Source of the DNA: an uncultured delta proteobacterium
GTDB lineage: Bacteria; Desulfobacterota; RBG-13-43-22
Reading direction: 5' to 3'
Assembly (NCBI GenBank): GCA_963711835.1
Contig: CAVQFQ010000017.1
Span: 320,001 to 384,000, forward strand
Length of the DNA: 64,000 bases
Shown here: piece by piece, positions 17,674 through 50,530 of the stretch
Layout of the letters: each line of letters opens with the position of its first letter
Position numbering within the stretch: the first letter of the stretch is position 1
The notes under the pieces: model-generated
What the model saw: the letters and a program-made list of their open reading frames with translations, nothing else
Told to the model about the DNA's origin: nothing
Database searches by the model: none
Program-made: the position numbers and the translations under genes

Positions 17674-17817
17674 TAGTGTAGTGTCTCAGACAAGTCTTTA
17701 CAACGTCTTAAAGAGCAGTCATTCCCGCGGAAGCGGGAATCCAGAAATAAAAAAACTGGATTCCGGGTCAAGCCCGGAATGACGGCACTGTAAAGCCATT
17801 ACGGAGACACTACATTA
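17674..17817. mobile_element. MITE-like element carrying a CGTC-REP pair
   Basis: Outer IR TGTAGTGTCTC-8nt-CTTTACA / TGTAAAG-8nt-GAGACACTACA. Inner GTCATTCCCGCGGAAGCGGGAATCCAG (17718-17744) and CTGGATTCCGGGTCAAGCCCGGAATGACG (17756-17784). Confidence 0.75.
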
Positions 17818-22624: not shown

Positions 22625-22840
22625 ATGAGAACGACATTGGCCATCAAAGACCAGCTCCTGGAGGAGGCCAAGGTCCTTTCCGGGGCCAGAACTAAAAAGG
22701 AGACCGTAGAGATCGCTTTAGATGAATTTGTCAGGAGGAGAAGGGCAAAAAAATTGATGGACCTGGAAGGCCAGGTGGAATTTGCCCGGACCCTGGATGA
22801 TTTTTTAAAACAAAGGAGAAAAGATGTTCCTTATCGATAG
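22625..22840 (+). CDS. vapB: VapB-family antitoxin
   Basis: MRTTLAIKDQLL..TKKETVEIAL ribbon-helix-helix pattern; overlaps vapC. Confidence 0.85.
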   Translation: MRTTLAIKDQLLEEAKVLSGARTKKETVEIALDEFVRRRRAKKLMDLEGQVEFARTLDDFLKQRRKDVPYR

Positions 22841-23216
22841 TTCTGCCTGGATAGAATATTTCAGGCCGAAAGGATCTCCCAAGGTAAAAGAAAGGGTCCG
22901 GGAAATTCTAAAAAAGGAAGAAGCGGCCACCTGCGGCATTGTGATCGTTGAATTATTGAGGGGTGCCACAGATAAAAAAATCTATCAGTCTCTTAGAGAA
23001 GCCCTTTTAGCCCTTCCTCAAACCCCCTTAAATGATTCGGTGATTCAAAGGGCGGCCGAATGGGGCTTCTTGGTAGACCGTAAACTCAAGACCGTCCCGA
23101 CTACGGACCTTTTGATCGGCGCCTCCGCCTATAAAAAGGCAACGGTCCTGCACTGTGATAAGGATTTCGAGCTGCTGGCTTCGACCTTTGGTTTGGAACA
23201 GGAACGATGCCGGTAA
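22824..23216 (+). CDS. vapC: VapC PIN-domain toxin
   Basis: LIDSSAWI..ELLRGA..DLLIGA..HCDKDF. Confidence 0.88.
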   Translation: MFLIDSSAWIEYFRPKGSPKVKERVREILKKEEAATCGIVIVELLRGATDKKIYQSLREALLALPQTPLNDSVIQRAAEWGFLVDRKLKTVPTTDLLIGASAYKKATVLHCDKDFELLASTFGLEQERCR

Positions 23217-24725: not shown

Positions 24726-25145
24726 CCCATTAGGCCTAACTTAAGAGCCGAGGGTTTCTCTGACGTCATTCCGGCGAAAGCCGGAATCCAGGGAGCCACC
24801 AGTGAATAAACAACCAGTGGTATATATTCTGGCAAGTAAAAGAAATGGAACTCTTTATATTGGTGTGACTTCAGATCTTGTCAAAAGGGTATGGGAGCAC
24901 AAAAACAATATGGTTGAAGGGTTTACCAAACGCTATGGTGTCCATCAGTTGGTTTGGTATGAATTGCACGAGGGCATGGGATCGGCTATTCAGCGGGAGA
25001 AGCAACTGAAAGAATGGAAGCGCAAGTGGAAACTTGAATTAATTGAGGGTGCCAATCGAAATTGGCAGGATTTGTATTATTTGATTGTCTGACTGGATTC
25101 CGGCTTTCGCCGGAATGACGCTACGCCTAAGTTAGCGCTTATGGG
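24726..25145 (+). mobile_element. 420-bp element: outer TIRs + perfect CGTC-REP inverted pair + GIY-YIG nuclease gene
   Basis: Inner 28/28 IR at 24764-24791 / 25093-25120; outer 16/20 IR at 24726-24745 / 25126-25145. Confidence 0.75.
24802..25092 (+). CDS. Stand-alone GIY-YIG nuclease family protein
   Basis: VYILAS..TLYIGVTSDLVKRVWEH..FTKRY..AIQREKQLK..N: GIY/YIG, Arg and Glu retained. GTG start with GGAG upstream. Confidence 0.9.
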   Translation: MNKQPVVYILASKRNGTLYIGVTSDLVKRVWEHKNNMVEGFTKRYGVHQLVWYELHEGMGSAIQREKQLKEWKRKWKLELIEGANRNWQDLYYLIV

Positions 25146-25194
25146 ATGGAGGGGAGAGAGATAAGTCTCTGTTATTCACCCCCACCTCTCCGCC

Positions 25195-25264
25195 GCGGCG
25201 GACTCCCCCCTCTGAGGGGGACGGCCATGAGCCGGGTCAAAGAGGAAAATTTCAATTATCTTTG
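25195..25264 (+). repeat. 70-bp dispersed structured repeat, copy 1
   Basis: 69/70 identical to 58073-58142. Confidence 0.85.
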
Positions 25265-25354
25265 TTTAGCCCTTTGAAAAGGCCCGCCTCTTTCAGGCCG
25301 GCCAATTAGGCATCGGGTAAAAAAGCACATAGCGCCTATGGAACAGGGTTGGGC

Positions 25355-28126: not shown

Positions 28127-28588
28127 TTAGGAGTTAAGGGACGATCTAATATCTTCGGCAATGGAATGAATAAGACCGGGAAGTTTTTCCAGTAAAGGGG
28201 GGGATAATTCTTCCCCGAAGGAAACCGGATTTTCTATTTCAATCCCGTAAATTCCGGCAACCTCCGGCATCTGGAGTCCCAGGCTCTTCCCTAATTCGAG
28301 CAAATCAAAAAAATCCAAGCCATGGGAGGAGAAAAGGTGCCTGGCTCCCTCTCCCGATGGTACTTTTTTCAATTCACCAGGATCGTTTTTACCTGAAACC
28401 AAGGCGTCGATCAGAAAGAGTTTTTCATATCCCTTTAAATGATCCAGTAGATTAAGACCCACCATCTGGGTGGTCGCTACCTGGGCATTCGGAATTTTTC
28501 CCTCGAGGGCCCGAGCGATGCATAACCCCACCCCGTCGTCGGACAGGATGGGGTTTCCCATTCCTAAGATCAAGGTCTTCATGGTCAT
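28127..28588 (-). CDS. Hydrogenase maturation protease
   Basis: LGMGNPILSDDGVG, IDA and SSH motifs; follows the large subunit. Confidence 0.9.
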   Translation of the reverse strand: MTMKTLILGMGNPILSDDGVGLCIARALEGKIPNAQVATTQMVGLNLLDHLKGYEKLFLIDALVSGKNDPGELKKVPSGEGARHLFSSHGLDFFDLLELGKSLGLQMPEVAGIYGIEIENPVSFGEELSPPLLEKLPGLIHSIAEDIRSSLNS

Positions 28589-30051
28589 TAAGGTCGGGTA
28601 ATGGTTCGGATTACAACCCCCTTTTTATCTCGGATGGTAACGGTCAGGGGTATGTGTCCCGGCAGGGAGTGCGTGGCGCAGGACAAACAAGGGTCATAGG
28701 CCCTGAAGGCCATTTCCACCCGATTTAACAGTCCCTCCTTTACCTCGGTTCCCCGAATAAATTCCTGGGCGGCTTTTTTTACCGATAAACAGATAGGCGC
28801 GGCATTATTTTGGGTGGCTACAATCAGGTTAACCTTGGTTATTATCCCCTTATCATCCGTTTCATAGTCATGGAAAAGCGTACCCCGCGGGGCTTCTACG
28901 CACCCCACCCCTTTTCGGGTTAATTTCAAGTTCATATTACGGATATCTTTGCTGGTTAATAAAGGATCATTGGCAATGATCTGGTTGTGCTCGGCGGCCT
29001 GAAGGGCGCAAATTAGGCGGGCCCAGTGCATGGCCAGGGTATGATGGGCGGGTTTGCCGCCCAGGGTATCGAACATCTGCTCATATTCCTTTTGAGCCAG
29101 GGGGGTAGCCATGCCATCGGCCACATTGAGCCTGGCCAAAGGGGCTACGCGGTAGAGAGAGGTCCCTTCCCCTTCGATTAATCCTTTCCAGCCGAGTTTT
29201 CGTAAATGATTCAGCTTAATATAGGTCCAGGGTTCGACCCATTCACCGATGTGTTCTACATAGTCCTTGGGATCGAAGAGGGCGAATTCGTTCCCTTTGG
29301 GATCAATAACGCGAACCTTACCGTCATAAAAGGATACCTTTTTGTTCTCGTCTACCAGGGACATATAGTAGGTCTTCAGGTTATAAGCGTCACTGAGGAT
29401 CATATCCAGGTATTCCTTATTCCCAAGTACGACGTCTTTAAATAACTGCATGGCAAACTGGGCGAATTCAACGGAATAATCCGTGGTTTCCTTGATCCAT
29501 TTCCTTTCGTCCTCGGTTATGCCCCGAGGAACCCCCCCGGGCAGCCCTCCTTCCGGATGCGGGGCCTTGGAGAAGATCAATTTAATGATCTCCCGGTTCC
29601 TTTTGCGGACCTCGATGACTTTAGAGCCGATCTCCAGGCCGACTTTTCCCAGGACCCCCAAGATATTCCTTTCTGAAGGATCGGCATCAGGCCCAAGTAC
29701 AAAATCCGGGGCAGCCAAAAAGAAAAAATGGATATAATGATCTTCGACATAGAAAGCGTTGAACTCGAGCTGTCGGATTAATTTGGCCGTCGGGGTGGGT
29801 TCGACCCCATACAGGGCATCCAGGGCCTTGGTGGCGGCCATGTGGTGAGCCGAAGGACAGACGCCACAAATGTTCGGGACGATCCGGGTCATTTCCTCTG
29901 CCGGTCTTCCCAGACAAAACCGTTCAAAACCCCGCAACTCAGCCACCTGCCAGAAGGCGTCATCAACTTGCCCCTGGTCGTTAAGAAAAATCTCTATTTT
30001 CCCATGGCCCTCCAGTCGCGTTATCGGATTGATCGTTATTTTTCCTGGCAT
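28588..30051 (-). CDS. mvhA: [NiFe]-hydrogenase large subunit, group 3 (MvhA-like)
   Basis: TRLEGHG, L1 ICGVC, EAPRG and L2 DPCLSCATH plus a cleavable tail. Confidence 0.9.
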   Translation of the reverse strand: MPGKITINPITRLEGHGKIEIFLNDQGQVDDAFWQVAELRGFERFCLGRPAEEMTRIVPNICGVCPSAHHMAATKALDALYGVEPTPTAKLIRQLEFNAFYVEDHYIHFFFLAAPDFVLGPDADPSERNILGVLGKVGLEIGSKVIEVRKRNREIIKLIFSKAPHPEGGLPGGVPRGITEDERKWIKETTDYSVEFAQFAMQLFKDVVLGNKEYLDMILSDAYNLKTYYMSLVDENKKVSFYDGKVRVIDPKGNEFALFDPKDYVEHIGEWVEPWTYIKLNHLRKLGWKGLIEGEGTSLYRVAPLARLNVADGMATPLAQKEYEQMFDTLGGKPAHHTLAMHWARLICALQAAEHNQIIANDPLLTSKDIRNMNLKLTRKGVGCVEAPRGTLFHDYETDDKGIITKVNLIVATQNNAAPICLSVKKAAQEFIRGTEVKEGLLNRVEMAFRAYDPCLSCATHSLPGHIPLTVTIRDKKGVVIRTITRP

Positions 30052-30053
30052 TT

Positions 30054-31037
30054 TTATTCCTCCATCTCTTTCCTGGGCTTCATCCTCCCCAAGATTGAAG
30101 AGGGTTGGGTAAAACGATAAAAATATCCCGCGGGATCAACGAGGGAATCGATTACCTCTCGTATCTCCTCATCTTTTTCGGCTTTGATTAAAGAGGCCAA
30201 GGCAGACAGATATTTGGGGCCGGCCCCCACTACCCCTGGAGGAGGACCGAAGCAGCCTCGGCAGGGAACGTTGGTCTGGATACAGCTTTCCCCACACCCG
30301 GTACGGGTTACCGGGCCCAGACAAAGGATACCCTCAGCCAGAAAACAGGCATTGGGATCCGCCTCCACTTCATGGATCCTTTTAAATTGCTTAATTTCTA
30401 TCCGGTGGGGTTTCAATTTATTGCGTGGGCAGGTGTCGCATAAGGCCGTACGGGGTGCCAGGGTGGACCCTTTGGGAGGGAGGTCGCCGGCAATGACGGC
30501 ATTGACGGCACTGGCAATCAAACCCGGCGGAGGCGGACATCCGGGCAGATAAAAATCTACATCGATGAGCAGGTCCAGACAATAGACATGTTCATAAAAT
30601 TCCGGAAGAGTCAAGACCTTGCCATTGATCCGGGTTTCTGTTTGGGGGAACTTGGTTTCGGGGTTCACTACCGTAGGGGCATCCCGATAGACCCAGTTAA
30701 AGATATCTTCCTTGCTTGTAAAGTTGGCCAGGCCGGCTGTTCCTCCAAAACAGGCGCAGGCCCCTAAGGCTAAAACCAGTTTAGATTTTTTTCTGAGGAG
30801 CTTGGCGATTTCTTCATGATCAGAATTTCTCACCGCTCCGGAAAGGATACTCAAGGTGATTTCTTCATCCTTCAGGGATTCTATGTGACTATATTTAAAA
30901 TCCATAGCCACCGGCCAGAGAACAATATCTACGGCCTGGGCTACCTCCAGAAGGGTTTCATTTAAGTCCACTATGGATTCATCGCATCCGGCACAGGCAC
31001 TTAACCAATAGATGGCTACTTTGGGCTTATCAGCCAT
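30054..31037 (-). CDS. mvhG: [NiFe]-hydrogenase small subunit (MvhG-like)
   Basis: CAGC, GACACFGG, LPGCPP, CDTCP..CFL..CLGP..C..C..PCRGC. Confidence 0.88.
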   Translation of the reverse strand: MADKPKVAIYWLSACAGCDESIVDLNETLLEVAQAVDIVLWPVAMDFKYSHIESLKDEEITLSILSGAVRNSDHEEIAKLLRKKSKLVLALGACACFGGTAGLANFTSKEDIFNWVYRDAPTVVNPETKFPQTETRINGKVLTLPEFYEHVYCLDLLIDVDFYLPGCPPPPGLIASAVNAVIAGDLPPKGSTLAPRTALCDTCPRNKLKPHRIEIKQFKRIHEVEADPNACFLAEGILCLGPVTRTGCGESCIQTNVPCRGCFGPPPGVVGAGPKYLSALASLIKAEKDEEIREVIDSLVDPAGYFYRFTQPSSILGRMKPRKEMEE

Positions 31038-43960: not shown

Positions 43961-44098
43961 TTGATGGATTCGTAAAAAGTCACCAAAGCCGTCACCCCGG
44001 CGAAAGCCGGGGTCCAGAACTACGTGAATTTACTGGATTCCCGTTTTCACGGGAATGACGTAAATGGGCTTTCGATGATTTTTTCTGCAACGTTTAGG
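43961..44098. mobile_element. MITE-like element carrying a CGTC-REP pair, with mismatched (chimeric) ends
   Basis: REP pair at 43990-44060. The left 21 bp are identical to 50393-50413; the right end resembles the reverse complement of 52402-52427. Confidence 0.7.
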
Positions 44099-50392: not shown

Positions 50393-50530
50393 TTGATGGA
50401 TTCGTAAAAAGTCGCTGAAAGCTCATTTTTGTCATCCCCGTGAAAACGGGAATCCAGTATTTTTAATTAGTTACACATGGCTTGGATTCCCGCCTGCGCG
50501 GGAATGACGACTTTTTACGAACTTGTCTAA
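50393..50530. mobile_element. MITE-like element carrying a CGTC-REP pair
   Basis: Perfect 14-bp IR TTCGTAAAAAGTCG / CGACTTTTTACGAA enclosing GTCATCCCCGTGAAAACGGGAATCCAG..TGGATTCCCGCCTGCGCGGGAATGACG. Confidence 0.8.

Follow-up and report, generated by a model that had tools for sequence, protein, structure and literature searches.

The window analysed here, a 64,000-nt stretch of a contig from an uncultured delta proteobacterium, carries at 24728–25143 a 416-bp unit in which two hairpins bracket a gene and are separated from the outer ends by spacers of 20 nt (left) and 7 nt (right) (Table 1). A GIY-YIG gene is the only ORF of at least 60 aa overlapping the unit, and no transposase of the DDE or HUH type is encoded within it. 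In a search of the window, the 28-mer preceding the gene recurs behind it as an exact reverse complement, with no further match at up to three mismatches; two or more matches occurred in 0/100 shuffles. In both copies the fold is an 8-bp stem closed by a 4-nt loop (z ∼ −4.3), and the hairpin tags point outward at both ends of the unit. The gene begins with GTG 10 nt past the left hairpin and ends with a TGA set directly against the right one, and an outer repeat (24726–24745 vs. 25126–25145) matches at 16 of 20 positions, so that the architecture described in a first-pass annotation of this DNA is present in every detail. A promoter scan yielded nothing exceeding chance.

A glycosidase gene lies upstream, immediately preceded by a VapB antitoxin and PIN-domain gene pair (22625–23216; Pfam). 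To the right of the unit, 25144–25225 consists of G-run/C-run repeats like the repeat family targeted by related cassettes, and farther on the reverse strand carries three genes (28127–31037) whose products resemble a NiFe hydrogenase maturation protease and the large and small subunits.

Table 1. Features of the GIY-YIG unit and the gene-less doublets of the window.
Feature	Position	Strand	Basis
Gene-less doublet, no outer MITE end recognised	13535–13610		
Gene-less doublet (17717–17784) inside "family B" MITE-like ends	17674–17817		
Left IS186/IS421-type terminal inverted repeat, decayed	24728–24743	+	13/16 match to IS186B/IS421 end
20-nt spacer, homologous in many relatives	24744–24763	+	Comparison with relatives' spacers
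Predicted top-strand Ssn cut, in the 20-nt spacer	near 24759/24760	+	Inferred from SsnA (PMC11893778)
Left CGTC-tagged hairpin (SRM/NTS type), 8-bp stem, GAAA loop	24764–24791	+	Motif search and fold
Likely Shine-Dalgarno sequence, entered by the 3′ tail of the left hairpin	at the 3′ tail of the left hairpin	+	Read off the sequence
ssn gene, 96-aa single-domain GIY-YIG nuclease (Y8, Y19, R29, H33, E66)	24802–25092	+	ORF, Pfam, homologue alignment
Right CGTC-tagged hairpin, mismatch-free reverse complement of the left one	25093–25120	−	Motif search and fold
7-nt spacer, of conserved length among relatives	25121–25127	−	Comparison with relatives' spacers
Predicted bottom-strand Ssn cut, in the 7-nt spacer	near 25125/25124	−	Inferred from SsnA
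Right IS186/IS421-type terminal inverted repeat, 16/16 match	25128–25143	−	Comparison with IS186B/IS421 end
Gene-less doublet (43990–44060) behind a "family A" MITE-like end (43963–43980)	43963–44060		
133-bp "family A" MITE with doublet (50430–50509)	50395–50527		

GIY-YIG enzymes generally hydrolyse without a covalent intermediate. The sole Pfam match of the window protein is to this domain (PF01541, E 1.5e-16, residues 5–78), and at least 7940 of the 8000 candidate proteins scored fall at E ≤ 1e-20. Y8, R29, H33, and E66 are invariant in 85/85 homologues of at least 75% identity, and Y19 is conserved in 83/85. Compared by eye with published primers rather than with full-length SsnA, the protein is identical at 22 of 24 N-terminal residues and at 13 of 17 around E64; in the same partial, primer-derived comparison Y6, Y17, and E64 of SsnA align with Y8, Y19, and E66. 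Its size, single domain, residues, and SRM hairpins all fit the Ssn nucleases, in which family we place it on sequence grounds. A reading as a GIY-YIG homing endonuclease or Penelope-type enzyme was rejected: the protein has 96 aa, its gene is intergenic, and it scores 20.5 bits against a TIGR01453 cutoff of 56. No Ssn structure was found in the PDB, where the only match is UPF0213 BH0048 (E 0.005).

The Ssn family (cd10448) and its NTS/SRM hairpin motifs were defined by Chenal et al. (2025, PMC11893778), who reported SRMs on both sides of 42% of Ssn homologues and an Ssn homologue in 137 of the 169 genomes with more than 200 SRMs. SsnA of Neisseria meningitidis resembles the window protein in being a single-domain GIY-YIG protein of 94–96 aa encoded between inverted 28-nt CGTC-tagged hairpins. 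It cleaves the tagged strand in a Mg-dependent manner, only as ssDNA and at a distance of a few bases on the 5′ side of the hairpin, and reduces transformation in Neisseria; deletion of ssnA in N. meningitidis raises transformation with NTS-bearing DNA approximately 5-fold (PMC11893778). The window hairpin fits the SRM pattern from end to end and the NTS pattern with two mismatches, differing from the Neisseria hairpin at two paired positions of the stem. Repeats of the same tag and stem-loop type, the CGTC-tagged REPs, were earlier described as having no dedicated transposase, and the available text makes no mention of GIY-YIG proteins (Di Nocera et al. 2013, PMC3733652). The first-pass view that these REPs have no assigned enzyme reflects that state of knowledge and is superseded by the partnership and ssDNA cleavage now in print (PMC11893778). 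Its proposal that this GIY-YIG subfamily is their enzyme partner is borne out: among 71 distinct metagenome homologue loci (80 less nine duplicates of another locus), hairpins flank the gene on both sides in 56 and on at least one side in 67.

The analogy with RAYT/REPIN systems (REPtrons), which the first pass had offered as new, was likewise already raised by Chenal et al., whose discussion calls NTS-ssnA-NTS IS-like and likens it to REP-associated transposases (PMC11893778). The likeness consists of an enzyme gene between hairpins that are recognised as ssDNA, with gene-less inverted doublets elsewhere. A RAYT, in contrast, is an HUH Y1 tyrosine transposase associated with GTAG tags, whereas the window unit encodes a GIY-YIG hydrolase with CGTC tags, and the activities reported on the Ssn side in the available text comprise cutting and not strand transfer.

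The 16-bp core of the outer repeat was found again around the closest homologues, and a scan of the genome collection for this end returned at least 122 stretches. Among the matches listed, it stands at both termini of 1324–1385 bp elements with 11-bp direct repeats; the IS4 transposase of one such element (L080) scores 159 bits against NF033592 (cutoff 115) and is 33% identical to the IS186 transposase. The same motif terminates a 1339-bp element in viral contigs, annotated in Escherichia coli genomes as IS186B/IS421, for which 11 of 17 distinct sites show an exact duplication of 10 bp. The "16/20 outer IR" of the unit is, as judged by this identity of ends, the terminal repeat of IS186/IS421, a member of the IS4 family. 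IS4 subgroups with CAT ends have 10–12 bp repeats and passenger DNA (PMC2266710), and the target site of IS186 is GGGG(N6/N7)CCCC (PMC5009759). The cassettes share with E. coli IS186/IS421 an identical 16-bp end, duplications of 10–11 bp, and G/C-run targets; the window unit differs in its length of 416 bp, in having no transposase, in carrying a nuclease and its own hairpins as cargo, and in having lost its duplication.

IS186-type ends also enclose other small modules with repeats of their own (among the matches listed, L086, L091, L076, L079, L120, L073, and L121), including, according to Pfam, a DUF559 nuclease-like gene with C-run/G-run hairpins (L086) and a 23S_rRNA_IVP four-helix-bundle gene with short tandem repeats (L120). 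Inspection by eye also revealed such ends around what is left of further GIY-YIG genes.

Non-autonomous IS derivatives include MITEs, and mobile insertion cassettes are known for IS231. Compared with the published Ssn systems, the window unit is distinguished by its location inside IS186-type ends and its relatives by target duplications, features not described in the available text of PMC11893778. We found no description of Ssn inside IS186-type ends in the literature searched, which included the accessible part of PMC3184786 and consisted largely of work outside subscription journals. We regard the unit as a familiar nuclease-hairpin system carried by a conventional vehicle not described for it in the literature searched, all of its components belonging to known types.

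Evidence for movement comes from the relatives, for which ends were analysed at 65 metagenome homologue loci with flanks of at least 150 nt. IS186-type ends occur on both sides at 23 of these (≤4 mismatches) and on at least one side at 37 (≤3 mismatches), whereas random 110-nt windows matched the end in 0/3000 cases at three mismatches and 7/3000 at four. The flanking 11-mers just beyond the two ends agree at eight or more positions in 13 of the 23 two-ended cassettes, five of them exactly, as compared with a mean of 1.7 and a maximum of seven cassettes in 10,000 shuffled flank pairings; the other 10 have no clear duplication. Exact 11-bp duplications are found in L041, L043, and L116, and a single genome (G004) contains several copies with different exact duplications (L041 and L043). 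The flanks of the cassettes are unrelated save for two pairs sharing a site, and their targets are G/C runs, as for the full-size IS elements with the same ends.

Empty orthologous sites, proposed by the first pass as a check, were sought and one was found for a relative: genome G001 matches the left flank of L003 at 83% over ∼1000 nt and has the target once (9/11 alike) and no cassette. Because the right flank of G001 diverges soon, orthology of this site is supported by the left flank only. For the locus of the window copy itself, no empty site turned up among the genomes compared, none of which belongs to the same genus. At the L003 site in G007 and G009, and at the L043 site in G009, the cassette is absent together with the target hairpin, and these candidates define no junctions.

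The spacers between end and hairpin are conserved, measuring 18–24 nt in 32/40 cases on one side and 7 nt in 27/43 on the other, and in L002, L271, and L283 the core is flipped relative to the spacers, their lengths being swapped. This suggests a single capture of the core followed by later flipping. Gene-less 87-bp forms (L032 and L038, in G004 and G009) retain both spacers and one fused palindrome, which fits loss of the gene between the repeated stems, the reverse order also being possible. Many hairpins have an extra hairpin of 20–30 nt in their loop with tag, stem, and tail retained (L077, L116, L146, L199, L213, and others). What demonstrably moved in the relatives is an IS186-type cassette that lacks a transposase and carries Ssn as cargo.

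Not all homologues are of this kind. No end is found at ≤3 mismatches at 28 of the 65 close homologue loci, and the window's genome has a second Ssn-family gene (L030, C17:662771–663242), 72% identical over 86 residues, which lies between inverted hairpins with another hairpin alongside and has no IS186-type end. The stem variant of L030 is nearer to several doublet arms of the window. A quick tree was built for 93 genes, omitting short-flank rows without an end and including three rows obtained through the search for ends. The 49 rows that carry an end are all contained in a single 81-row subtree (SH-aLRT 89, not starred), and no IS186-type end occurs in the remaining 12. The end-presence label requires 21 changes on this tree. 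Some of the homologues lacking IS186 ends may have moved by another route. No relative turned up in viral contigs, and plasmids gave only two weak matches.

A stem-checked scan of the window's genome found 41 tagged hairpins and none in the reversed-genome control. Because the published SRM pattern discriminates poorly here (48 matches vs. 21–29 in five random genomes), hairpin counts were taken from the stem-checked scan; the host differs in this number from Ssn systems with hundreds of hairpins. Inverted doublets are dispersed, with four in the window and more on other contigs. The four gene-less doublets reported by the first pass are all present, but the divergence it noted is not decay: seven of the eight arms retain a 7/7 paired stem, and the differences from the gene-flanking hairpin are mostly compensated. 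The arms are other repeat variants and not decayed copies of that hairpin.

IS186-type ends surround none of the four window doublets (0/4); family A ends adjoin two of them, and family B ends enclose another. The MITE at 50395–50527 has a twin on contig C15 that differs at 5 of 133 bases and includes the ends in the copy, and for 15 of the 41 tagged hairpins a family A or B end lies no more than 70 nt away. Family A ends are present in 16/21 family genomes, often around such doublets, and some copies have flanking repeats of 5–6 bp; a search for the IS families from which the A and B ends derive identified none. As the duplicated doublet was copied together with its MITE ends, the visible spread of doublets here also used MITE ends.

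These observations bear on the proposal of the first pass that the unit is the autonomous form of a nuclease-driven REP system, according to which the nuclease itself would spread the hairpin-gene-hairpin core and the doublets in a RAYT-like manner, the IS ends being a landing site or second vehicle. Several features are in keeping with it. Given the outward tags, SsnA-type cuts would lie immediately beyond the core on either side, three relatives have the core inverted with respect to its spacers, purifying selection (see below) is strong despite many unrelated gene sites, and many homologues as well as the second gene of this genome have hairpins and no IS186 end. The IS-like architecture and the frequency of Ssn homologues in SRM-rich genomes point the same way (PMC11893778). 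The target duplications and the single empty site nevertheless map to the outer IS ends and not to the hairpins, the conserved spacers indicate one capture rather than repeated landings, and the association of doublets and hairpins with family A and B ends, including the doublet copied with its MITE ends, counts against it as well. For SsnA, moreover, the available text reports only cutting and not strand joining (PMC11893778). We consider nuclease-driven spread unlikely, and the unit is not supported as an autonomous form.

The window copy itself has a perfect right end and three mismatches in the left, and no target duplication, its flanks being alike at 2/11 positions. A cognate transposase was not found in the window's genome (G000) by tblastn or HMM, the assembly being 89% complete, nor was an L080-related transposase found with one query in any of 21/21 family genomes, which are incomplete assemblies in which multi-copy IS often remain unassembled. 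With a decayed left end, no duplication, and no cognate transposase found in its genome, the copy looks stranded, a decayed or rearranged cassette. Homologues of the upstream glycosidase occur in only 2/20 other family genomes; the DNA directly behind these two contains no cassette and was not matched to the downstream gene of the window. Contigs of eight sequencing runs showed no joint skipping the whole cassette among the joints listed (15 of 42 in one case), and joints between two hairpins in these contigs, which have sides shorter than 30 letters and come from other doublets, were discarded as evidence. In two RNA libraries no contig spans the gene, a result uninformative for expression. 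One RNA-library contig (run X14) connects 24820 to 25274 through 11 intervening letters of other sequence; judging by this single contig, a deletion in a related strain may have removed most of the gene along with the right hairpin and end.

The gene in the window is nevertheless intact while the left end has decayed. Against 29 other two-ended cassettes its median dN/dS is 0.10 (range 0.05–0.17), unlike the expectation for inert cargo; the gene is under purifying selection, and hence the nuclease may still have a role in spread. This selection, the outward tags, and the many homologues without IS186 ends all stand against a purely passive cargo. In the genus of the G004 and G007 copies (L003, L028, L043, and L045; L015) the gene has a CTG start, with one early stop and two broken copies, and three G004 copies have dN/dS values of 0.25–0.57, on small counts a sign of relaxed selection.

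An intact gene beside a decayed end is also what would be seen if the host kept the nuclease as a filter on incoming or replicating ssDNA, as in Neisseria, the IS ends being a fossil of its arrival with no present mobility. The approximately five-fold gain in transformation with NTS-bearing DNA on deletion of ssnA in N. meningitidis provides a precedent (PMC11893778), and two homologues whose ends are nearly gone (L004 and L005) appear to have a common downstream neighbor. A retained filter accords less well with the patchy distribution and the broken copies in several relatives, with the G004 copies (different sites, exact duplications, CTG starts, and raised dN/dS on small counts), with the one related-strain contig that has lost most of the gene at the window locus, and with a genome of only 41 hairpins. 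As the whole explanation we regard it as quite improbable. Neither nuclease-driven spread nor domestication by the host is exclusive of movement by a transposase in trans, with which both are compatible.

We favor, as the probable reading, that the 416-bp unit is an IS186-type cassette which has Ssn as its cargo and no transposase of its own, that an IS4-family transposase acting in trans moved it, and that the nuclease nicks ssDNA beside the hairpins without itself moving the unit. By analogy with SsnA, the protein would need an unpaired tagged strand for binding to the hairpin and would cut ∼4 nt 5′ of the CGTC tag, in both spacers. The cassette would insert with the ∼11-bp duplications at G/C-run targets seen in the relatives, the transposase presumably being supplied in trans. 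IS ends would have captured the hairpin-gene-hairpin core once, long ago; the cassette would then have spread, its ends decaying, its core now and then being inverted and the gene at times being deleted between the two stems. The window copy would now be immobile. Our best guess is that the nuclease is kept intact by its published role, the restriction of hairpin-bearing ssDNA.

A more far-reaching two-tier system can be imagined, although we think it has little chance of being correct. Ssn would nick outside the tags and free or copy hairpin-bounded DNA, which would load onto the ends of several IS families and be carried between sites and phyla; IS186-type ends would then be a general shuttle (for Ssn, DUF559, and 23S_rRNA_IVP modules) and Ssn would fill the long-vacant place of a RAYT among the CGTC REPs.

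The available text of both the 2013 and the 2025 papers leaves open by what route CGTC-type REPs and their nuclease spread (PMC3733652, PMC11893778). The cassette offers one concrete route, namely transport within IS186-type ends, which the well-studied E. coli transposase should recognise. With such a vehicle it becomes unnecessary to assume that the nuclease is the transposase. By analogy with SsnA, the nuclease-hairpin pair is in addition a further candidate for a site-specific ssDNA cutter.
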